Shown one piece after another: positions 775 through 11,675 of a stretch of DNA of 64,000 nt (position 1 is the stretch's first letter; every line of letters begins with the position of its first letter). The DNA comes from Planctomycetota bacterium (GTDB lineage Bacteria; Planctomycetota; B15-G4; SIAN01). The notes beneath the pieces are model-generated. The model was not told the DNA's origin. It ran no database searches and saw only the letters and a list, made by a program, of their open reading frames with translations. The stretch lies in the NCBI GenBank assembly GCA_031409275.1, contig JANNXA010000045.1, forward strand, positions 40,875 to 104,874. The letters run 5' to 3'. Made by a program: the position numbers and the translations under genes.

Positions 775-1161
775 ATGCACCCCCCTCGACCCAAGCGAGC
801 CACTCGATCGCGCCGCAGCGGCTTTGCGCTCGTCGAGTTGATGGTGACTTCGATCGTGCTGATGACCGGATGCGTCGCCCTGGTGCTCTCCACCAGCACC
901 ACCGGCCTCGCGACCTTCAAGGCCGAGCAGGCCAGCGTCACCAAGAACACGCTCGACTGGCTGCTCGAAAGTCTCGCCGACGTGGAGTTCGACGACCTGC
1001 TGTCGTGGAACGGGGTCAGCTTCGACCGCGGCGACCACACCGCCCGTGTCAACGCAACCACGGTGTCGCTCGGACTGATCAGCCTCGAGATGACGGTCAC
1101 CGACGACCGCACCGGCAGCGTCCTGGGGCGCATCGCGACGCTGCGCTCGGGAGGCTACTGA
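775..1161 (+). CDS. Prepilin-type N-terminal cleavage/methylation domain protein (PilV-like minor pilin)
   Basis: Basic leader, then G|FALVELMV (Gly at -1, Glu at +5) and a hydrophobic helix. Confidence 0.75.
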   Translation: MHPPRPKRATRSRRSGFALVELMVTSIVLMTGCVALVLSTSTTGLATFKAEQASVTKNTLDWLLESLADVEFDDLLSWNGVSFDRGDHTARVNATTVSLGLISLEMTVTDDRTGSVLGRIATLRSGGY

Positions 1162-1162
1162 G

Positions 1163-1750
1163 ATGGCGACCCCACGACGCAAGACGCGCGGCACCACGCT
1201 GCTCGAGACCTCGATCACGGCGACGCTCCTCGTCGGGGTGGTCGGCACCGCGCTCTCCCTGACGCGCGAATCGCAGGGCGTCATGCTCGATTGCATGCGC
1301 GCACTCGCCGAGCGGACCGAGTCGAGCAACGCGTTCGACGAGCTCGCCGAGTCGATCGCGCAGGCGAATGGCGCGACCCTCCAGATCGACACCCGTCCGG
1401 TGGACGGCGACCTCCTGCTGCTCCAGGTGCCGGTCAACCTCGTCGGCAGCGCCGCGACGTGGGGCGCGACCTCTCTCGACCGCGTCACGTCCACGCAATG
1501 GGCCGGCGCCTTCGACGAGTACCGGCTGATCGCGTCGCAGAACCACCGCACGAAGTTCCGCCTCACCCGCCGACCGGTCGACGCGAACGGCCAGCCACTG
1601 GCCGCGGCGGTCGACATCGCCGACGGGATCGATGGCGTCGACTCGGCGGGCCACAAGGGATTCACCGTCTTCCGTGACGCGAGCCTCGTTCGCGTCACCC
1701 TGCGCGTCGGACATGCCGTCGACGTCACCGTCCGTCTGCGCAATCCGTGA
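1163..1750 (+). CDS. Prepilin-like protein (PilW/PulJ-like)
   Basis: RKTRG|TTLLETSI class III signal with Glu at +5; starts 1 nt after the previous stop codon. Confidence 0.7.
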   Translation: MATPRRKTRGTTLLETSITATLLVGVVGTALSLTRESQGVMLDCMRALAERTESSNAFDELAESIAQANGATLQIDTRPVDGDLLLLQVPVNLVGSAATWGATSLDRVTSTQWAGAFDEYRLIASQNHRTKFRLTRRPVDANGQPLAAAVDIADGIDGVDSAGHKGFTVFRDASLVRVTLRVGHAVDVTVRLRNP

Positions 1751-3672
1751 GAACTCCCATGAACCGCATGCCCATCGCTTCGAACGTCCAAGGAATGCGC
1801 ACGCGAAGCCGCGAAGCGGGCTCCACGCTCGTCGTCGCGCTCGCATCGACCATGCTCGCCGCGGGCATCGCCTACGCCGGCCTGTCGATCGCCACGACCG
1901 GCCAGGCCGACTCGGCGCGCCAGGAACTCAAGCTGCGCGCGAAGGCGCTGGCCGATGCCGGGGTGCATCGCGCCGTGACCTTCCTGAACCAGACCACGCA
2001 CCTGAGCCCGTTCGATCCATTCGCCGCGGTCGACGCGCTCCTGTTCGACGGTGGCGGAGCGCCGATCGACTACGCGCTGGCGGAGGACGAGCCGCTCACC
2101 GTCGGCGGTCGCACCTACGGCAGCTACTCGGTCCACGCGTCGGCGATCCAGAACGGGCTCGTGCGCGACGTCACCGTGACCGCGACCGGCTACGTCCCGA
2201 ACCGCCAGGCGGCCCAGTTCCGCAAGACCGTGCAGGCGGTCGTGCGACTCGAACAGCGCCCCGCCGAAGTCTTCGACTACAGCTACTTCATCAACAACTG
2301 GGGCTGGTTCTACGGCAGCACGATCAACGGCTACGGCAACGTGCGCTCGAACGGACAGTTCGACGCCGCCAACTACTCGCCAGGCGTCTTCGGTGCGCCG
2401 CGCTACGAGCAGATGGACCTGACCAACCCGTCGCTGCCCGACCTCGTCGGCTACCAGGACGACAACCACGACGGCATCGTCGACGGCACCGACGGCGGGA
2501 TCTTCGCCGGCTGGGACATCAAGGACTCGACCCACGTGCGCGGCCTCGGCGGCGACACGGCGAACCAGCACGACTACGTCGCGCAGGTGCCGATGCCCAA
2601 CTTGAGCGACCTCGCCGTCTACGAGTCGATGGCGCTGTCCGCGGGCGCAAGCCTGTCGATCAGCGGCGGCGCCGGCTTCCCTGCGACCCCGGTCACCGAC
2701 GCGGTGCTCGGGGACGGCGTCGGCGAGAAGCAGAACCTGGTGCTGATCGGCACCGTCGACAAGCCGATCCTGCTGAACGGTCCGGTCGTCGTCCGCGGCG
2801 ACGTCATCCTGTCGGGCGTGGTGAGCGGCCAAGGGTCGATCTACGCCGGCGGCAACGTCTACGTCGCGAAGAACATCACCTACCTCGATCCGCCGACGAC
2901 CTCGAAGCCGGCGACCAACAGCGAAGCGGACACCGAAGCGTGGATCGCGGCGAATCACTCGAAGGACTTCCTCGGCCTCTTCGCCCGCGAGCATGTCGTC
3001 ATGGGCGACTACACGAACTGGATCTGGCGCTACTACGTCAACTGGTGGATGAACGACTCGATGAACGCCAGCGTCGAAGACGCGGGTCTCGACCAGATCC
3101 CGGGCACGCGGGCCGGTCGCGACGGGATCATGAACACCGCCGACGATGACATCCTCGAAGGCGATGGCGTCTTCACCGTCGACCGCTACACGCAGGCGCA
3201 CGCGAACCTCGGCCAGATCCCCGCGGGCAAGAGCGTCGGCGACGTGATCCCCGGCTCGGGCGAGGACATCGATGGCGACGGCAGCTTCGACGCGACCGCA
3301 ACGCTCTCCGAGTTCGACCTGCCCGCCGCGCTGAACAGCGGCCAATGGGCCGGCAACGTGCCGCCTGGCACCGCGAACTTCAGCGAGATCTCGACGCTCG
3401 AACTCACCGACGTGAACGCCGCGATCTACACGAACCACGCCGCCGCGATGGTGACGCTGGCCTGGGGACGCGACTTCAACCTGCTCGGCGCAATCGTCTC
3501 GCGCAACGAGTCGATGATCTACGGCACCAACAGCATGAACCTCACCCACGATCGCCGGCTCACCGCGGGCGGCGCGTACGGCAGTCTGCTGCCGCGCGAA
3601 GTCGTCGCGGCGCGAATCCTCACCTGGCGCACGCTCGAGCAGGACGTGCACTTCCTCGGAGCCACACCGTGA
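1747..3672 (+). CDS. PilX-like pilus assembly/tip protein with Asp/Gly-rich putative Ca-binding loops
   Basis: REAG|STLVVALAST leader lacking Glu+5, as in PilX/GspK; A(D/E)AG motif (ALADAGV); DDNHDG and EDIDGDG motifs. GTGA overlap with the upstream gene; the true start may be a downstream ATG. Confidence 0.65.
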   Translation: MRTPMNRMPIASNVQGMRTRSREAGSTLVVALASTMLAAGIAYAGLSIATTGQADSARQELKLRAKALADAGVHRAVTFLNQTTHLSPFDPFAAVDALLFDGGGAPIDYALAEDEPLTVGGRTYGSYSVHASAIQNGLVRDVTVTATGYVPNRQAAQFRKTVQAVVRLEQRPAEVFDYSYFINNWGWFYGSTINGYGNVRSNGQFDAANYSPGVFGAPRYEQMDLTNPSLPDLVGYQDDNHDGIVDGTDGGIFAGWDIKDSTHVRGLGGDTANQHDYVAQVPMPNLSDLAVYESMALSAGASLSISGGAGFPATPVTDAVLGDGVGEKQNLVLIGTVDKPILLNGPVVVRGDVILSGVVSGQGSIYAGGNVYVAKNITYLDPPTTSKPATNSEADTEAWIAANHSKDFLGLFAREHVVMGDYTNWIWRYYVNWWMNDSMNASVEDAGLDQIPGTRAGRDGIMNTADDDILEGDGVFTVDRYTQAHANLGQIPAGKSVGDVIPGSGEDIDGDGSFDATATLSEFDLPAALNSGQWAGNVPPGTANFSEISTLELTDVNAAIYTNHAAAMVTLAWGRDFNLLGAIVSRNESMIYGTNSMNLTHDRRLTAGGAYGSLLPREVVAARILTWRTLEQDVHFLGATP

Positions 3673-4187
3673 ACGGGACTGCAACACCGTGGCCACGCGC
3701 CGCGCTCGGCGCGTTGCTGGCGCTCGGCATCGCGCTCCCCGGTGAGGCAGGCGCGCAGAGCTCGGCGCCGTCGACCTCGGGTCGGCCAGCCGAAGCGACG
3801 CTGCGACTGCGCGGCAGGAAGCTCGACACGCGCGCGAGCCTCTACCCCGGCTCGGCCGATCTCGCCGCGAGCGGCTGGGACCACCGCGATCGCGAGCTGC
3901 GTCAGCTCGGCCTCGAGACGGTCGAGGCGAGCATGCCTGAGATCTTCGACCCGGAAGTGCTGCGAGCCCGGGCGCTCGCACTGCATGGCGGCGCCGAAGT
4001 GGAGAGCGCCACCGTGGCGCGCACGCCGCTCGAGCCGCGCTCGTTCGCGACCGCTTCGGAGCTCGACGCCCCGGCGCCCGCACGATTCGGAGTGGTCACC
4101 GGCGGGCTCGTCGCTTTCGCCGGCGCGCTGCTGCTGCTGGCGGCGCGCCGCAAGCGACGGCTCGCGCGATCGAGCGAGCAACCGTAG
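3669..4187 (+). CDS. Hypothetical exported protein with C-terminal membrane anchor
   Basis: GTG 3669 overlaps the previous TGA; signal-peptide-like N-terminus (…AGA|QS); C-terminal hydrophobic helix followed by RRKRR. Confidence 0.55.
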   Translation: MNGTATPWPRAALGALLALGIALPGEAGAQSSAPSTSGRPAEATLRLRGRKLDTRASLYPGSADLAASGWDHRDRELRQLGLETVEASMPEIFDPEVLRARALALHGGAEVESATVARTPLEPRSFATASELDAPAPARFGVVTGGLVAFAGALLLLAARRKRRLARSSEQP

Positions 4188-4195
4188 GAGCCGGC

Positions 4196-4831
4196 TCAGC
4201 CGCGGCGCTTCTTCAGCGGCTTTCCGTCGGCGCTGGTCGGCGGCGCGTCCTTCGCCGTGCCGCCATGCTTCTTGCCTTCGAGCGGCGGGATGCGGCCGTC
4301 GGCGAGCGCCTGCGCGAGGTACTCGACTTCGCCCTGAATCGTGGTGTCGGCGGTCTTCGGACTCTCCTTGGGATTCAGGCAGAAGAGGTCCCACGCCTCA
4401 CCCCGCTCGCCATGCTGGCGCACGTTCCAATCGCCCGACTTCTTGTCGCGCGACAGAGGGAAGAGGACGCAGCGCCACGGCTTGTACTGGAAGCGGTCGC
4501 CTTCCTCGGCCCCGACCTTGTGGAGCACGCAACCGTCGTTGAAGAAGATGCACCAGCCTTTGCTGACCTTCAGCGTCGGCAGCCCCTCCTTCTCCTGATC
4601 GGAGAGCCAGCCGCTCTTCTCCGCCAGCGCGCGCGCCTCTGGTCGCAGGTGCGGCATGAACTTCGGCAGGTGCTTCGCGATCCGCTGCTGCTCGTGCGGC
4701 TCGACCGCCGGTCGGCCGTTCATGCAGCAGATCCCGCCACACGTCGGATAGACGCAGTCGAAGTGGGCGGTCTTCAGGTTCGCGATCGGCGGCGCCACGG
4801 CGAGGGGCACGGCGACTTTCTTCTTGCTCAC
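4196..4831 (-). CDS. Cys-rich DUF3109/YkgJ-like putative Fe-S or Zn cluster protein
   Basis: FDCVYPTCGGICC, CIFF...GCVLH, YKPWRCVLFPL; 4-nt overlap with the upstream GNAT gene. Confidence 0.65.
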   Translation of the reverse strand: MSKKKVAVPLAVAPPIANLKTAHFDCVYPTCGGICCMNGRPAVEPHEQQRIAKHLPKFMPHLRPEARALAEKSGWLSDQEKEGLPTLKVSKGWCIFFNDGCVLHKVGAEEGDRFQYKPWRCVLFPLSRDKKSGDWNVRQHGERGEAWDLFCLNPKESPKTADTTIQGEVEYLAQALADGRIPPLEGKKHGGTAKDAPPTSADGKPLKKRRG

Positions 4832-5427
4832 GAGCGCTCCTTGCGCGAAATCTCGGGTCCGCGCGCGGGCGACAACGGCCGTCCATCGACGCGGCGGGCG
4901 TAGACGACCTTGTCGTCGCCGAGGCGGTAGTAGTCGGGGATGCGAGCGATCTCGACGTAGTTCGCCCGTTCATAGAAGCGGCGCGTCGGCAGATAGGACT
5001 CCTTGCCGCCCGTTTCGATGAGGATCATGCGACCGCCGGCAACCCGCACGGCATCTTCGGCCGCGCGCAACAGCTGTTGACCGATGCCAACCCCGTGCAG
5101 CGTCGGATCGACGGCGATCCAGTAGAGATCGAAGATGCCGTCGGTGAGCGGCGTGAGGCCCCAGCACACGTAGCCGACCGCACGCGCCGCATCGCGTTCG
5201 CCAAGTTCGGCGACGCGGAAGCAATAGTCGTCGGGAAGCGCGGCGGCACCCGATCGCGCCTTGGCGATCCCCTCGTCGATCAGCTCCATCGCGACCGCCA
5301 GCTCGTTGTCGGGGAACGAACCGGTGGCGCGCAGGATCGCTTCGAGCGGCGCGCGATCGCTGGAATGCAGCTCACGCAACCGGACCGGGCCGGGCAAGCG
5401 CGAGGAGGCGGGCGACGAGCTGCTCAT
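4828..5427 (-). CDS. GNAT family N-acetyltransferase
   Basis: FDLYWIAVDPTLHGVGIG acetyl-CoA motif A and TRRFYERANY. Start uncertain: ATG 5427 overlaps the upstream gene, TTG 5379 is an alternative. Confidence 0.8.
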   Translation of the reverse strand: MSSSSPASSRLPGPVRLRELHSSDRAPLEAILRATGSFPDNELAVAMELIDEGIAKARSGAAALPDDYCFRVAELGERDAARAVGYVCWGLTPLTDGIFDLYWIAVDPTLHGVGIGQQLLRAAEDAVRVAGGRMILIETGGKESYLPTRRFYERANYVEIARIPDYYRLGDDKVVYARRVDGRPLSPARGPEISRKERS

Positions 5428-6397
5428 AGGTAGCCCCGGTGCGACCCCACGCGCGGGCGAAGCCGGCGTCGGGCGATAGGTCGGGATTGGGATTCGCTTC
5501 GAGGACGATCGGCGCGTCGGAGCCGTCGAGCCGCAAATCGATGCGGCCGTAACCCGTGAGCGACAGCGCATGCCACGCCGCGAGCGCGGCGCCCTGCACC
5601 CGCGCCGCGACCGCGGGCGCAAGCACGGCGTCGACGACGTTCGTGCCGTTCCAGTCGGGGCTGCCCTCGACCCACTTCGACTCGAAGGTGACCAGGCGCG
5701 GCCGTCCGGATGGGAACTTGGCGAAGTCGATCTCGGCCACCGGCAGCACTTGCGGCGCGTCGGCCGTCCCGACCAGCGCGACGTTCAGCTCGCGACCGGC
5801 GACGAAGCGCTCGACGAGGGCGGGCTGCCGATAGGTCTCGACGACGTAGCGCGCACGCGCGCGCGCCGCTGCGACGTCGTCGACCACGCTCGCCGCGGTG
5901 ATGCCGTGGCTCGCATCTTCGCGCGCCGGCTTCACGATCCACGGGAACGGCGCACGCGCCGCCAGCGCCGCCAGCAACGCATCGTCGCGAGGATCGCCGC
6001 GCTCGAACACGACCCCGTCGGCGACCGGAACGCCGCCCGCCGCGAGCAACGCCTTCGCCAGTGGCTTGCGCAAACTGAGCGCGCACGCAAGCGAGCGATT
6101 CCCGGTGAACGGCAACCCGGTCAGTTCGAGCAGCGCGGCGACCGCCGGTTCGAGCGCCGCGTCGCCGCGGTAGGACTCGACGAGATTGAAGACGACGTCG
6201 GGATGCGCGCGCTGCAGCGCGGCCAGCAAATCGGCCGGCTGATCGGGCGCCGGTTGCAGCCGCGCTTCGTGGCCCAGCGTGGCGAGCGCCGCCGCGACGG
6301 CTCGCGCACAGCTCTGCACGGAGACGACCGCGAGCGCATCCTGAGCGGATCCGTGGGCGAGCGCCTCCTCGGCGTTGTGCAGCACGACGACACGCAT
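5372..6397 (-). CDS. D-Ala-D-Ala ligase-like ATP-grasp enzyme (copy 2)
   Basis: VFNLVES, LPFTG, IVKPAREDASHGI, VERFVAGRELNV, YGRIDLR, LEANPNP. Confidence 0.85.
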   Translation of the reverse strand: MRVVVLHNAEEALAHGSAQDALAVVSVQSCARAVAAALATLGHEARLQPAPDQPADLLAALQRAHPDVVFNLVESYRGDAALEPAVAALLELTGLPFTGNRSLACALSLRKPLAKALLAAGGVPVADGVVFERGDPRDDALLAALAARAPFPWIVKPAREDASHGITAASVVDDVAAARARARYVVETYRQPALVERFVAGRELNVALVGTADAPQVLPVAEIDFAKFPSGRPRLVTFESKWVEGSPDWNGTNVVDAVLAPAVAARVQGAALAAWHALSLTGYGRIDLRLDGSDAPIVLEANPNPDLSPDAGFARAWGRTGATYEQLVARLLALARPGPVA

Positions 6398-6405
6398 CGC
6401 GGCGA

Positions 6406-7398
6406 TCAGCTCCGCGGCAGGCGGGAGAGCGCCTGGTCGAGGATGCGACCGATCAACCCGTCATGGTCGAGGCCGACGCGCTCCGACATCACGCAGAGGT
6501 CGCTCCAACCCGGGTTGACGCCCGGCAGCGGATTGAGCTCGATGAAACGAGGCACGCCATCGGCTCCGAGCCGCACATCGACGCGACCGACGTCGCGACA
6601 CTGCAGCGCGCGATAGGCGGCCAGCGCGGTGCGTTCGACCGCGGCCGTCAGCTCCGGCGCGCGGCGCGGCGGGACGTGGTATTCGACCTGCTCGTCCCAG
6701 ACGCGCTTCACCTCGACCGAGTAGACGAAGTCCGCGGTGACGCCGCCCTTCGGGCAGATCTCCATCGTCGCGAGCACGTGCGCGCGCTCGCCCTGACCGA
6801 GGATGCCGACGGTGAACTCCGGCCCGGTGAGGAACTCCTCGATGAGCGCGGGCTGCTCGTAGCCGGTCAACAGGCGCTCGACTTCACGGCGCAGCGCAGC
6901 GTCGTCGTTGCTCTTGCTGGTCTTGCGCACGCCCATGCTCGAGCCTTCGAACAGCGGCTTGGCGATGCATGGAAACGGCAGTTCGAGAGTCGCGAGCTGC
7001 TCGACCGTCGAGACCACCACTCCGCGCGCGACGGCGACGCCGGCGGCAGCGGCGATGGTCTTGGCCAGCGCCTTGTCGAGGCTGAGCGCGAGCGTCAACG
7101 GATCGCTGTGGGTGCAGGGAACGCCGACCATCTCGCAGGCGGCCGGCACGTGCGCCTCGCGCGAACGGGTGCCGTGGCCTTCGGCGACGTTGAAGACGAG
7201 CTCGGGCGGCCGCTCCAGCAGCGCGGCGAGGAAGCGCTTGCCGCCGCCCATGCGCCGCGGACGGTGGCCGCGCCGACTCAACGCCGCCTCGATGGCGGCG
7301 ATCGTGCGATCCGAGTCGTACTCCTCGAGCCGATCGTCCGGTGCGCCAGCGGCCGCCGTGAAGTCGCTCTTCAGGTCGAATGCGATGCCGATGTCCAC
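6406..7398 (-). CDS. D-Ala-D-Ala ligase-like ATP-grasp enzyme (copy 1)
   Basis: Real CDS begins at GTG 7398 (VDIGIAFDLK); FNVAEG, LDKALAK, AKPLFEGSSMG, IEEFLTGPEFTVG, GRVDVR, IELNPLPG. Confidence 0.85.
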   Translation of the reverse strand: MDIGIAFDLKSDFTAAAGAPDDRLEEYDSDRTIAAIEAALSRRGHRPRRMGGGKRFLAALLERPPELVFNVAEGHGTRSREAHVPAACEMVGVPCTHSDPLTLALSLDKALAKTIAAAAGVAVARGVVVSTVEQLATLELPFPCIAKPLFEGSSMGVRKTSKSNDDAALRREVERLLTGYEQPALIEEFLTGPEFTVGILGQGERAHVLATMEICPKGGVTADFVYSVEVKRVWDEQVEYHVPPRRAPELTAAVERTALAAYRALQCRDVGRVDVRLGADGVPRFIELNPLPGVNPGWSDLCVMSERVGLDHDGLIGRILDQALSRLPRS

Positions 7399-7427
7399 GA
7401 CCGCCCTTTCGTCCGCTCGCGCTTCGT

Positions 7428-8900
7428 TCAGGTCGAGTCGCGACGACTGCGGCCGCGGTGCGCCCACTTGCTCTTGCCGACCACGGTCTCGGTGGCCGGT
7501 GGCGCCGGCGCGGCTCCGTCCGCAGCGCTCGACGCCGACGCTGCGACGACCGGCGCTTTGCTCCGACCGCCGCTCTTCTCGCGACCATGGCTGCCATTGC
7601 GGCCGTTGCTCGAATGGCCGTTCTGCTCGGCCGCGTCGGCCGCCGACACCGCGAGTGCCGGCCGCGCGTGGCTGCTGCTCAGCGCGATCGGACCAGCGGC
7701 CGGCGTCGCGTTGGCCGAGGCCACGAGACGGCGGTGCAGGATCTCCTCCTCCGGCAGCTGCTCGAAGTACTCGAAGATGCGCCCCTGGAAGTTGCGCAGG
7801 ATCGCGCGCTGCTTCTTCGGGTCGTAGTGGAGCAGGTAGTTGGGATTGACCGGCACCTTGCCGCCGCCGCCGGGCGCGTCGATGACGTACTGCGGCACGG
7901 CGAGTCCGGAGGTGTGGCCGCGCAGCCCCTCCATGATCTCGAGTCCCTTGGCGATGGTCGTGCGCATGTGTTCGCTGCCGCGCACCGGATCGCAGTGGTA
8001 CACGTAGTAGGGGCGCACGCGCATCTTCATCAGGCCGTGCATCAACCCCTTCATGGTCTCGACGCTGTCGTTGACGCCCTTCAGCAGCACCGCCTGGTTG
8101 TTCAGCGGGATGCCGGCACGCGAGAGCATGTCGCACGCGCGCGCCGCTTCGGGCGTGCACTCGCGCGGGTGGTTGAAGTGCACGTTCACCCAGAGCGGGT
8201 GGTACTTCTGCAGCATGTCGCACAACTCGGCATCGACTCGCTGCGGCAGCGAGACGGGCACGCGGGTGCCGATGCGGATGATCTCGAGATGCGGGATGGC
8301 CCGCAGCTTGGAGAGGATCGATTCGAGCTTGCCGGTCGAGCAGGTGAGCGGGTCGCCACCCGACACGACCACGTCGCGCACGGTCTTGGTCTTCGCGATG
8401 TAGTCGACCATGCGGTCGATCTCCATCTCCGGCACGGCGTCCTCGTACATGATCCGCTTGCGCGTGCAGTAGCGGCAGTAGACCGCGCACGAGTTGCTGA
8501 TCACCATCAGCACGCGATCGGGATAGCGATGCGTGATGCCGGGGACGGGCGAGTAGGCCTCTTCGCCGAGCGGATCCTCGTCGCCGACGTCGCGGTAGGT
8601 GTACTCCTCCGCGATCGGCACCGCCTGCCGCAGGATCGGATCGTCCGGATCGTCGGCATCGATCAGCGCCAGGTAGTACGGCGGGATGCCCATGCGGAAG
8701 TCGCGCAGCACCTCGCGGCGCACCTCGCGCTCGCCTTCGGGGATCGGCAGCAGCTTGATCAGCTGTTCGAGGTCCGTGACGCGATTGCGGAACTGCCACT
8801 TCCAGTCGTTCCACTCCGCGTCGGAGACGTTCGGGTAGTAGTGGGCGCGACCCGTGCGTCGCGCAGCCACTGCGGCAGCGAGCCCGCTGCTCTGGATCAC
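7428..8900 (-). CDS. kamA: KamA family radical SAM enzyme (lysine 2,3-aminomutase-like)
   Basis: THRYPDR, CAVYCRYC (CxxxCxxC), SGGDPL, HFNHP, GLRGHTSG, DAPGGGGKVP (PLP lysine); ~100-aa low-complexity C-terminal tail. Confidence 0.9.
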   Translation of the reverse strand: MIQSSGLAAAVAARRTGRAHYYPNVSDAEWNDWKWQFRNRVTDLEQLIKLLPIPEGEREVRREVLRDFRMGIPPYYLALIDADDPDDPILRQAVPIAEEYTYRDVGDEDPLGEEAYSPVPGITHRYPDRVLMVISNSCAVYCRYCTRKRIMYEDAVPEMEIDRMVDYIAKTKTVRDVVVSGGDPLTCSTGKLESILSKLRAIPHLEIIRIGTRVPVSLPQRVDAELCDMLQKYHPLWVNVHFNHPRECTPEAARACDMLSRAGIPLNNQAVLLKGVNDSVETMKGLMHGLMKMRVRPYYVYHCDPVRGSEHMRTTIAKGLEIMEGLRGHTSGLAVPQYVIDAPGGGGKVPVNPNYLLHYDPKKQRAILRNFQGRIFEYFEQLPEEEILHRRLVASANATPAAGPIALSSSHARPALAVSAADAAEQNGHSSNGRNGSHGREKSGGRSKAPVVAASASSAADGAAPAPPATETVVGKSKWAHRGRSRRDST

Positions 8901-9644
8901 CTGGAATCTCCCTGGAATCGCGCGGAGCGGACGATGCGATGAAGCATCGACTCGCGTGTCAGAGGTGAGCGCGCGACGCCGGCCATGTTGGAACGGCGGA
9001 TGCAGCGTGACGCGTCGAGACGACGCGTCGCCATCCGCGACTGCTTCGCGAACGTTGGAATCGGAAGGGGGCGAACCGAGCGCGAGCCGGAACGGATGCG
9101 AAGGGGAGCGACGGTCGCGACGAGCGCGCCGAGCCGACCGCAGCCGGCGACGGCGCGCGTCGTACCTGGAGGTTCGCTCTCGACCGATGCTTCGTCCGCA
9201 TCGACCCCGAGCGCTCGGATGCGACCGGCGCTCCGCGAGCCTCGTCCACTCTCCCCGACCACGAGGAGCATCACGTTCGTCCGCGAGGTCTTCCGCAGCG
9301 GCCAGCAGCCGCCAAAGCGTTCCCCTCGATCAACGGCGGGACGTCGCAGTTGCGATTGGCCGACCCGACCCATCGCAAGCTTGTCGAACGAGTCCCGTCC
9401 CTCGCCTCGACGGCGACTCGTCGAACGAGCGCGCTGGGTCAAGCTCAGGAAGAACGGGCGGAACCATACGGACGTCAGGAGGGGGCTGACAAGCGGCAAG
9501 CCGGCTCCAAGTACAAGGTGTTGAGAACCTCGCCGCCACGTTTCGCCGAAAGGGCCGCTTGGATGCGCGCTTGAACGGTGCACCGCCGACGTTGAAGCTC
9601 ACCTGCGAGCCGGACCACGCTCCATCCACGGATCGCCCCACTTC

Positions 9645-11675
9645 ATGAAACCCCTCGCCGCCGCCTGTCGCACCGCCCGTTTCGGAGCCCTCGCGGCGGG
9701 CGCCGTGGTCGGAGTCGCCGGCTGGCAATGGCCGACGCTCTTCGGCTCCGCCGGGGAGCGGCTGGGAACGGGGCTGCTGCTCGTGGTGGTGCCCACCGTC
9801 GTCGCCGCGCACGTCGCGCTGCCGCTGGCCCAGCGCCTCGCGAGCGCGGTCGCCGCCGCGCTCTGGAGCGGCGTGCTGGTCGCCGTCGTGGCGGCGCTCT
9901 ACCTGCCGACGGTCACCCCGCTCGCCGTCGCCATCGCTGCCGCCGTCGGCGCGCTCGTGGGTGGACTGATTGGCCGCAGCAACTGGTTCGAGCGGCGCGC
10001 CGCCACCGTCGTCGCCGTGGTCGCGCTGGCGGCCGCCAGCAGCGTCGGCGTCGTGCGCCGCCCCCTGCCAGCCGAACCCGCGTCGCCCCACCCGAACACC
10101 TTCGTCTTCGGCCTCGACGCCGGCACCTGGACGATCCTCGACGAACTGATGGCGAACGGCGACCTCCCCAACCTGCGCCGACTGCGCGAAGAGGGAGTGA
10201 GCGGCACGCTGCGCTCCGAAATCGAGTCCTCATCGCCGCGCGTCTGGACCACGATCGCCACCGGCAAGACCCCTTCGAAGCACGGTGTCGTCGACTTCTT
10301 CTGCACGCAGAACGACAACCTGACGACGCGCCGTGTCTGGGAGATCTTGCAGGCGCAGGGCTACAGCGTCGGGTTGTTCCAGTGGCTGGTGACCTGGCCG
10401 CCCGACCCCTTCGATCCCTTCGTGGTGCCCGCATGGATGGCGCGCGGTCCGGAGACGCATCCGGCGGAGCTCTCGTTCATCAAGGAACTCGAGCTCGCGT
10501 TCCAGACCGGCGAGTTCGACCAATGGCGCGCGCAACGCGAATGGCCCACGCTGCTCACGCGACTGCGCGACTGGGGAGTCGGATACCTGCGCCACGGACT
10601 GCGCATGCCGACGCTGTGCGCCGCCCTGTCGCAAGCGTGGACGGCCGCGACGAGTCCGAGCTGGGAACTCCAGTACGGCGCCAAGCGGACGCTTCAGCTG
10701 CTGCTGAACGGCGACGTCTACCGTGAGCTCTACCGCCGCCACCAGCCCGACTTCTCCGCCTTCATCTGCTACGGGACCGACAACCTCGCCCACAAGTTCT
10801 GGCAGTACCACTACCCCGACGACTTCGCGATCCCGCACGGCGCCGCCGCCCCCTTCGCCAACCTGCTGACCGACTACTACCGCGCCGCCGATGCGCTGCT
10901 CGGCGAGGTGCTCGCGCTGCTGCCCGCGGACACGACGGTGGCCGTCGTCTCCGACCACGGCTTCACGTCGATCGGCGAAGGCGGCGAGTCGCACCAACGG
11001 GAGCTGCGTCCGAAGATGAGCCGGCTCGCCTCGCTGCTCGAGCTGACCGAACGCGACGTCCTCTGGTCGGCCGTCGCGACTCGCGGCTACTTCCGGCCCG
11101 TCGCAGGCGCCATCGGCGCCGACGCTGCCGCACGGAGGATCCTCGACTTCCTCGGCGGCTGCGAGGTCGTCGGCGGTCCGAAGCTCTTCGTGCCGAAGGT
11201 GCTCGACTCCGGCCAGATCGAGGTCGCGATCAACCTCGACGTGAAGTTCGAGCGCGACACCGAATTCGCCACGCCGAAAGGGCCGATGCTCCTCACCGAC
11301 CTCGTCGACGTCGAGGATCGCACCGGCAACCACTCGATCGACGGGATCGTGCTGTTGCGCGGTCCGGCGTTTCGCCGCGGCGCGCGGATCGAGACCGCTC
11401 ACCTCGCCGATGTGACGCCGACGCTGCTCCACTTGAATGGGTTCGCCGTCGGCGCCGACATGGACGGCCGCGTGCTCGAAGAGGCGTTCACCGATGCGTT
11501 CCGTGAAGAGCACTCGATCGAGCGCATCGAGAGCTGGGACGATCTCGTGAATGTCACGCGCGCAGCGGCCGGACCAGGCGACGAGCGCGGGTGGCGCAAG
11601 TACGCCAGCGAACTCGGCTATGTCGATGGCGGCGACAAGGCGACGCCCGCCGGAGCACCGAAGGAGCGGGAGTAG
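9645..11675 (+). CDS. Membrane-anchored alkaline phosphatase/type I phosphodiesterase superfamily protein
   Basis: N-terminal TM helices; FGLDAG, SPRVWTTIATG, TDNLAHKFW, VVSDHGF, GNH, DVTPTLL; C-terminal LGY. Confidence 0.8.
   Translation: MKPLAAACRTARFGALAAGAVVGVAGWQWPTLFGSAGERLGTGLLLVVVPTVVAAHVALPLAQRLASAVAAALWSGVLVAVVAALYLPTVTPLAVAIAAAVGALVGGLIGRSNWFERRAATVVAVVALAAASSVGVVRRPLPAEPASPHPNTFVFGLDAGTWTILDELMANGDLPNLRRLREEGVSGTLRSEIESSSPRVWTTIATGKTPSKHGVVDFFCTQNDNLTTRRVWEILQAQGYSVGLFQWLVTWPPDPFDPFVVPAWMARGPETHPAELSFIKELELAFQTGEFDQWRAQREWPTLLTRLRDWGVGYLRHGLRMPTLCAALSQAWTAATSPSWELQYGAKRTLQLLLNGDVYRELYRRHQPDFSAFICYGTDNLAHKFWQYHYPDDFAIPHGAAAPFANLLTDYYRAADALLGEVLALLPADTTVAVVSDHGFTSIGEGGESHQRELRPKMSRLASLLELTERDVLWSAVATRGYFRPVAGAIGADAAARRILDFLGGCEVVGGPKLFVPKVLDSGQIEVAINLDVKFERDTEFATPKGPMLLTDLVDVEDRTGNHSIDGIVLLRGPAFRRGARIETAHLADVTPTLLHLNGFAVGADMDGRVLEEAFTDAFREEHSIERIESWDDLVNVTRAAAGPGDERGWRKYASELGYVDGGDKATPAGAPKERE

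Follow-up and report, generated by a model that had tools for sequence, protein, structure and literature searches.

N-epsilon-acetyl-beta-lysine, an osmolyte, is made by AblA and AblB. Amide formation onto amines by ATP-grasp enzymes occurs in the glutathionylspermidine and trypanothione synthetases (twice in trypanothione), the N-acetylglutaminylglutamine amide (NAGGN) synthetase Ngg unites a GNAT with an ATP-grasp enzyme, and the mycosporine enzyme MysD is a repurposed D-alanine-D-alanine ligase (Ddl). Here we analyse an operon of a Planctomycetota bacterium, located in a 64,000-nt stretch of contig JANNXA010000045.1 (assembly GCA_031409275.1, positions 40,875 to 104,874; hereafter the window). 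Four linked genes, referred to below as the cassette, encode a KamA-family radical S-adenosylmethionine aminomutase, two Ddl-fold ATP-grasp ligases (LigA and LigB) and a GNAT acetyltransferase; a fifth gene encodes a cysteine-cluster protein. Like AblA/AblB, the cassette has a KamA-type aminomutase and a GNAT; unlike AblA/AblB, it has a GNAT of another family (the PDB 2r7h type) and two ATP-grasp ligases at its core. To our knowledge, the glutathionylspermidine and trypanothione synthetases, Ngg and MysD represent other families and substrates and none is linked to an aminomutase. No NAGGN or glutathionylspermidine synthetase family was among the NCBIfam and Pfam matches listed.

An earlier note on this sequence had proposed that beta-lysine is made, ligated and acetylated by the products of these genes. 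Linkage, fusions, co-occurrence, a ligase pair distinct from Ddl, lysine-type KamA residues and independence from EF-P (elongation factor P) lysylation speak for that proposal, while its inclusion of the cysteine-cluster gene does not stand. We conclude that the cassette is a real, conserved and uncharacterised pathway assembled from known families, and we put the chances at about even that its four enzymes would build an N-acetylated, soluble, polyamine-like beta-lysine amide. KamA would convert L-lysine to beta-lysine, and a LigA-LigB heterodimer would use ATP to form amide bonds from beta-lysine to an amine acceptor, probably a polyamine or a second beta-lysine. Each ligase would pass through an acyl-phosphate, as Ddl does, so that the two active sites could make two successive amide bonds. 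The GNAT, tethered to LigB, would cap a free amine with an acetyl group. Some lineages would then reverse this step by means of an enzyme resembling acetylpolyamine amidohydrolases. Translation would be gated by an acidic Pro-Pro pause motif, located in the KamA N-terminus or, in the window, in a coupled leader open reading frame (ORF). Gene content, linkage, fusions, co-occurrence and residue conservation were seen directly, and from them we infer the substrates, the order of steps and the product.

The module is present in about one in six sampled Planctomycetota genomes, and the annotation D-Ala-D-Ala ligase is attached to proteins in the thousands. If the proposal is correct, the cassette would be a third beta-lysine sink besides fermentation and EF-P, its product a small acetylated cation so far never assigned to genes, and the ligase a heterodimeric Ddl-fold enzyme useful for beta-peptide bond formation. 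With just four small genes, the pathway is directly testable. A literature search across openly available full texts, without a 2009 survey of ATP-grasp neighbourhoods, found no description of the cassette; no ATP-grasp enzyme was found in the preprint on negamycin (10.1101/2025.07.31.667836).

The four genes are linked and co-occur

As the earlier note had anticipated, similar neighbourhoods exist elsewhere, and the linkage is conserved. The four core genes occur together in 12 of 18 GTDB loci, in 26 of 40 regions of the phylum that were chosen for their top-scoring LigA matches, and in 29 of 80 metagenome loci. These 80 are the best among 596 confirmed loci; of the 37 that span at least 8 kb, 23 hold all four genes. 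At least three gene orders were seen, including kamA-ligA-ligB-GNAT and ligA-ligB-GNAT-kamA. LigB is fused to the GNAT in at least nine cases (L018, L060, L061, L087, L088, L090, L128, L129 and P0060), and LigA to LigB in L071 and, judged by motif, in P0194. Fusions of LigA to another Ddl-like domain were found in L065 and in Anaeromyxobacteraceae proteins.

Co-occurrence was scored in 251 Planctomycetota genomes, with E-value cut-offs of 1e-100 for LigA, 1e-95 for LigB, 1e-40 for the GNAT and 1e-97 for close KamA. LigA was found in 42 genomes, and LigB (41) and the GNAT (38) were found exclusively within these 42; this holds even for unlinked genes, among them GNAT genes absent from the profile. 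A close KamA is encoded by 40 of the 42 cassette genomes, compared with 17 of the 209 others. In all seven lone-ligA genomes tested, a ligB-type gene was located at another site (E <= 1e-83). In genomes G110 and G146, the unlinked KamA nonetheless clusters with the cassette KamAs, and G146 has a separate true EpmB at efp.

More widely, the LigB profile matched 5,249 50%-clusters at E <= 1e-30, more distant Ddl-like proteins included. Outside Planctomycetota, matches were assigned, by record name only, to Myxococcota, Deltaproteobacteria and one Actinomycetota metagenome-assembled genome (MAG); the GNAT was found in 1 of 151 genomes of an Actinomycetota sample, namely the centre genome itself. 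Viral contigs gave no cassette match. Among plasmids, 14 distant records matched, two of which were inspected. One of the distant loci, on a Thioflavicoccus plasmid (L095:2467-7948), has a distant ligase in an operon with a diaminobutyrate transaminase and SbnA/SbnB-like genes, with KamA convergent, a case in which the ligase subfamily recurs with diamino-acid synthesis. In L101, L113 and L114, a more distant LigB-like Ddl-fold family, which is present in about 50 further genomes, forms a separate, uncharacterised two-gene module with a 340-aa HPDEDFAETF protein that has no NCBIfam match.

KamA resembles lysine 2,3-aminomutase

In an alignment with the clostridial structure 2a5h, window KamA scores 465 bits (E = 2e-138). 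Counted along the alignment, C138, C142 and C145 correspond to C125, C129 and C132 of the CxxxCxxC motif, and R147, D304, D341 and K348 correspond to R134, D293, D330 and K337, the last of which is the pyridoxal phosphate lysine. This bears out the claim that the enzyme keeps this lysine and the lysine-type aspartate pair. We take R134, D293 and D330 to be substrate residues, the two aspartates presumably binding the lysine epsilon-amine. Among 49 aligned locus KamAs, R134 and D293 never vary, while 45 retain D330 and 44 retain K337; most of the exceptions are gaps.

The profile scores place the enzyme within the KamA family (TIGR00238, 357.8 against a cut-off of 199.2). The lysine 2,3-aminomutase equivalog, TIGR03820, is the top-ranked model, yet its score of 486.1 falls below the cut-off of 525.4. 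The NCBIfam ranking is lysine (486), glutamate (453), arginine (399) and EpmB (266), with no equivalog cut-off reached; the EpmB score, 265.9, compares with a cut-off of 369.3. Of the lysine-type assignment, the residues therefore stand and the equivalog level does not. By inference from these residues and scores, window KamA would work like lysine 2,3-aminomutase. Its C-terminus (window 7428-7760) is a low-complexity stretch of about 110 residues whose tip is basic, and is kept in close relatives (L001 aligns over all 490 aa).

LigA and LigB are divergent Ddl-fold ligases predicted to pair

LigA and LigB share 35% identity across 283 aa and form separate clades, each phylum-wide, in a quick tree of 109 rows (all trees were quick or FastTree versions). 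They score 148.4 and 126.4 bits against a Ddl family cut-off of 243, stay well under every other Ddl cut-off too, have no PF01820 match and lack the GGxSxE start. The sole PF01820 match in the host genome is a separate, canonical ddl with GGPSAEHE on contig C22. The description of the ligases as mutually divergent, lacking GGxSxE and outside any dcw cluster was thus accurate. The canonical gene (G000:C22:84696-85766, L019) follows fatty-acid synthesis genes and, by eye, a nucleotidyltransferase-like gene, and is likewise not in a dcw cluster. It is very hard to believe that the two ligases are plain copies of D-Ala-D-Ala ligase with no connection to the neighbouring kamA: database names do call them D-alanine--D-alanine ligase, and 2r7h carries the title of putative D-alanine N-acetyltransferase, but the scores, the separate canonical ddl and the conserved linkage to kamA and the GNAT gene all argue otherwise. 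The name of 2r7h itself looks like a neighbourhood guess.

The LigA model (predicted local distance difference test score, pLDDT, 95.8) has E. coli Ddl as its best fold match, with a template-modelling (TM) score of 0.78, and the listed matches are all Ddl/Van ligases. With Ddl and VanA (2dln, 4c5a), the cassette ligases share this fold, the ATP and metal ligands and, by prediction, dimerization through the N-terminal domains. They differ in lacking GGxSxE and its E15, in carrying Glu for H63, in changes at Y216 and the S281-L282 loop, and in being two ancient pairing paralogues outside cell-wall clusters. Columns conserved at 90% or more number 52 in LigA (55 rows) and 22 in LigB (48 rows); a frameshifted LigA row (L017) was dropped, and L083, the N-terminal domain of L065 (L065-N) and L095 were placed in neither group. 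Both clades retain the equivalents of DdlB K97, K144, E180, E187, R255, D257 and N272, whereas the E270 position is Asp in 14 of 48 LigB rows. Since ATP and metal positions are kept in both clades, both ligases look catalytic.

The D-Ala pockets of Ddl, by contrast, are not retained. The DdlB H63 position is Glu in LigA and LigB alike. LigA has invariant or near-invariant additions at E26, D28, E73, R80, E81 and D300, and D300 falls in the loop that in Ddl holds the carboxylate of the second D-Ala. LigB has A311-G312 at Ddl S281-L282 and an invariant W242 at Ddl Y216. An acidic, carboxylate-blind acceptor site of this kind would fit a cationic amine acceptor. The same altered loop, together with the canonical ddl, makes it improbable that the cassette supplies a building block for the envelope, either an alternative peptidoglycan dipeptide or a lipid or glycan decoration. 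Such a role would suit the Ddl fold and the flippase-like gene (by eye) that follows the cassette in four related loci (cluster c27), but genes for Mur, Fem or flippase proteins are not found repeatedly in different lineages.

A model of the LigA-LigB complex scored 0.80, with 0.00 for the best control; runs share at least 91% of contacts and partner pLDDT is at least 86. The mark used for this score was attained by 116 of 157 solved pairs and 2 of 215 mismatched pairs. A LigA-LigB heterodimer is therefore predicted, although, Ddl being a homodimer, the score may reflect memory of Ddl, and homodimers are possible as well.

The acetyltransferase and accessory genes

The window GNAT belongs to the family of PDB 2r7h, the only solved member (profile E = 5.8e-56, with the next match at 4.6e-9; phmmer E = 3.7e-30). 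If the proposed pathway is right, this orphan structure would gain a function. The window GNAT matched rimI and PRK03624 alone, both weakly and below cut-off, and thus no model of AblB; nor was an AblB model among the 25 of 31 families listed for 40 GNAT members. These results bear on the idea that KamA and the GNAT make N-epsilon-acetyl-beta-lysine in the manner of AblA/AblB, with the ligases merely extending or storing the osmolyte. KamA does score highest with the AblA model, if below its cut-off and with a match confined to positions 3-361 of 417, and the GNAT gene adjoins kamA in the ligA-ligB-GNAT-kamA order. However, in the loci surveyed the GNAT is fused to LigB and never to KamA, and all 38 GNAT genomes carry LigA. 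Together with the AblB result, this leaves an AblA/AblB-style route improbable.

A GNAT-deacetylase gene lies inside or after the cassette in 11 loci (five planctomycete loci and 6 of the 80 metagenome loci), and its best PDB matches are acetylpolyamine amidohydrolases (9gkz, E = 1.5e-73). Together with the altered acceptor loop, the presence of this gene tips the balance towards a soluble amide of polyamine type as the product. Two loci (L083 and L136) hold a variant cluster with two LigA-like genes and a divergent KamA, which ends in a peptidase S58 gene (DmpA/beta-peptidyl aminopeptidase family).

The cysteine-cluster protein of the window matches PF11307 (DUF3109) with 49.4 bits, above the gathering cut-off of 33.5 (Atlas features 0.94). 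DUF3109 occurs in 15 of the 251 Planctomycetota genomes, in 8 of the 42 cassette genomes and in none of the 80 metagenome loci, which rules it out as a core gene; it is an accessory rather than the pathway member it had been taken for. Where ligB is unlinked, DUF3109 or a distant homologue still comes after it (L098, L100 and L139; also L089), which makes it an optional LigB-associated factor. Its model (pLDDT 76) gave no fold match (Foldseek, none at E <= 0.001; VIA, best Z 2.9). The sole studied DUF3109/Rv0495c member is reported to be tied to redox balance (10.1101/2023.08.22.554105). A YkgJ-like Cys-rich ORF without NCBIfam match follows an unlinked cassette-type kamA at L149:1782-2273.

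Several observations weigh against the proposed pathway and product. KamA lies below the TIGR03820 cut-off, so another diamino-acid substrate is possible. The register of the acceptor loop relative to Ddl differs by one residue between two alignment methods, the deacetylase is restricted to a minority of loci, and neither a polyamine-synthesis gene nor an exporter is conserved beside the cassette across the loci surveyed. The co-occurrence thresholds were fixed post hoc, some of the genomes scored had also supplied sequences for the profiles, and related genomes do not count as independent. The LigB profile has no clean score gap (95 genomes match at 1e-60) because a more distant LigB-like family is present in about 50 further genomes. 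Among the exceptions, no close KamA was found in G071, a different partner domain takes the place of LigB in G219, and the GNAT is missing in 4 of the 42 genomes.

An acidic Pro-Pro motif precedes KamA

The leader ORF upstream of window kamA is 68-124 codons long among the window and its four closest relatives (L001, L002, L003 and L053). All five leaders have a common start 9-mer, an EPP motif and a stop/start overlap with kamA, and the leader is likely to be translationally coupled to kamA. The stem of a possible leader hairpin is retained and its loop variable in 4/5 relatives, the hairpin being altered in L053. The promoter-like site is the sole match in 4000-9700 (0.1 expected in shuffles), and a TATGGT/TATGTT box lies likewise upstream in four relatives. 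The five genes had been placed correctly, but the unit reaches further upstream, to this leader and promoter-like site, which had been overlooked.

Beyond the window clade, the motif is found in KamA itself. The pattern [DE][EKD]?PP occurs in the N-terminal extension of 52 of 83 cassette KamAs (8.2 expected from shuffles), whereas of 20 KamA-family controls from outside the cassette only 1 has it (1.4 expected). The region scored was the last 90 in-frame residues ahead of the KamA core, of which at least 35 were needed; 13 shorter rows were excluded, start codons were left unfixed, and many of the motif-bearing sequences are related to each other. One copy is present in 33 KamAs, two in 17 and three in two (e.g. 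EEEPPG, EEEPPS). The first Pro codon of 73 motifs is CCT in 54, CCC in 13, CCG in 4 and CCA in 2, and the residue after Pro-Pro is mostly encoded by AGY (Ser) or GGY (Gly). Genome-wide in the host, CCT is the first Pro codon of EPP in just 10 of 180 cases.

The proline-codon pause elements of CadC (PMC8129111) likewise place Pro-Pro near the translation start, with codon choice tuning the pausing. That work reports that pausing is codon-dependent and that CCC/CCU is avoided at the first Pro, being selected against as a frameshift sequon (PMC8129111). The cassette motifs, in contrast, keep CCC/CCU in 67 of 73 instances. If the proposal is correct, this would be a natural leader retaining a codon pair otherwise avoided by bacteria. 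Conservation at the peptide and codon levels in two architectures, both ahead of KamA synthesis, points to translation-speed control, and the leader or motif likely sets how much KamA is made. Six kamA-last cassettes are exceptions, with no N-terminal extension and mostly no motif before ligA.

The motif could also be read as a substrate. The ligases might attach beta-lysine to glutamate side chains of a peptide or protein, such as the leader peptide or the tail with its repeats of EEEPP(G/S), with the GNAT then acetylating the product, a logic that resembles that of graspetides or tubulin tail ligases. The one to three acidic Pro-Pro units in cassette KamAs, their placement in a separate ORF in the window clade, and the reminiscence of microviridin clusters in two ATP-grasp enzymes plus a GNAT would agree with this. 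But the apparent constraint on motif codons counts against a substrate peptide, which would need none; the kamA-last cassettes are at odds with it; and the ligase fold, going by the matches listed, is Ddl-type rather than RimK-type. We consider peptide modification unlikely, if worth keeping in view. We give equally little weight to an extension of the beta-lysine amide proposal in which acetylated beta-lysine oligoamides, made by the Ddl-derived heterodimer, would be a new polyamine class sensed at the ribosome, the CCU/CCC Pro-Pro motif slowing kamA translation when the polycation is abundant. Eukaryotes have polyamine-sensing Pro-Pro leaders, of which this would be a bacterial counterpart.

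Other modes of action of the leader found no support. For a programmed frameshift from leader into KamA, the -1 frame is open in 4/5 leaders and stops after 16 codons in L002, and the +1 frame has no common outcome. The folded leader showed no anti-Shine-Dalgarno pairing by the motif with the kamA Shine-Dalgarno sequence. An Rfam scan gave a chance snoRNA match only (E = 0.72). In L159, L162, L164 and L167, response-regulator-like genes (by eye) lie between ligA and kamA-ligB, and the KamAs have no EPP motif.

Relation to EF-P

The KamA family, the Pro-Pro pause motif as possible feedback, and the absence of an epmA match in 33 of 42 cassette genomes could suggest that the cassette is an EpmA-independent route for beta-lysine onto EF-P. 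However, epmA occurs about as often in cassette genomes (9 of 42) as in the others (43 of 209), efp is present in 1 of 158 cassette loci, and in 15 epmA-less cassette genomes the best EF-P has Asn (11), Gln (1) or Lys (3) at its tip. We therefore reject EF-P modification, which we regard as scarcely credible given this epmA-independent occurrence and 12 of 15 EF-Ps with no tip lysine.

In the host, epmA lies on contig C20 and a PGKG-type efp on contig C40, neither of them on the operon contig, in keeping with the observation that no such gene adjoins the operon. A second KamA-family gene of the host (G000:C14:169087-170322, L127) is 40% identical, scores below the EpmB and AblA cut-offs and is not beside efp; it is a candidate beta-lysine source for host EpmA. 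KamD (PF09043) was not found in the host genome by a search that matched no control genome either and did not cover kdd and kce.

Organization of the window locus

The five operon genes are co-directional and closely packed, as first described, with spacings of 29, 8, -8 and -4 nt from kamA through ligA, ligB and the GNAT gene to DUF3109. The features of the locus are collected in Table 1.

Table 1. Features of the cassette operon and its upstream region (window coordinates)
Feature	Position	Strand	Description
kamA	7428..8900	-	490 aa; KamA-family radical-SAM/PLP 2,3-aminomutase, probably lysine type; TIGR00238, 2a5h match, key residues
ligA	6406..7398	-	330 aa; Ddl-fold ATP-grasp ligase; PF07478; more conserved subunit
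ligB	5372..6397	-	341 aa; second Ddl-fold ATP-grasp ligase, separate clade; PF07478
GNAT gene	4828..5379	-	183 aa, TTG start; small N-acetyltransferase, PDB 2r7h family
DUF3109/Rv0495c (YkgJ-like) cysteine-cluster gene	4196..4831	-	211 aa; PF11307; accessory
Leader ORF	8897..9271	-	124 codons, MLLVVG...SEPPG...GDSR; stop overlaps kamA start (GTGA)
Possible hairpin CTCCTC-loop-GGGGAG	9251..9268	-	directly past leader ATG
Glu-Pro-Pro-Gly codons GAA CCT CCA GGT	9164..9175	-	candidate ribosome-pause signal in leader ORF
Sigma-70-like promoter TTGTCA-18-TATGGT	9463..9492	-	predicted from sequence scan

GC content at third codon positions is 0.82-0.91 in the five operon ORFs. An 802-aa ORF at 6406-8814, the ligA frame staying open through kamA, was not counted as a gene. 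Contigs of two sequencing runs, a possible source of the window DNA, carry no indel across 4000-9700. The host genome is 92.9% complete, and the closest relatives of the operon are in Planctomycetota MAGs. On the plus strand, at window 775-3672, pilin-like genes, whose N-methylation motif scores weakly at 19.4 bits and stays below the cut-off, precede a gene for a 641-aa protein that neither Pfam nor NCBIfam models match.

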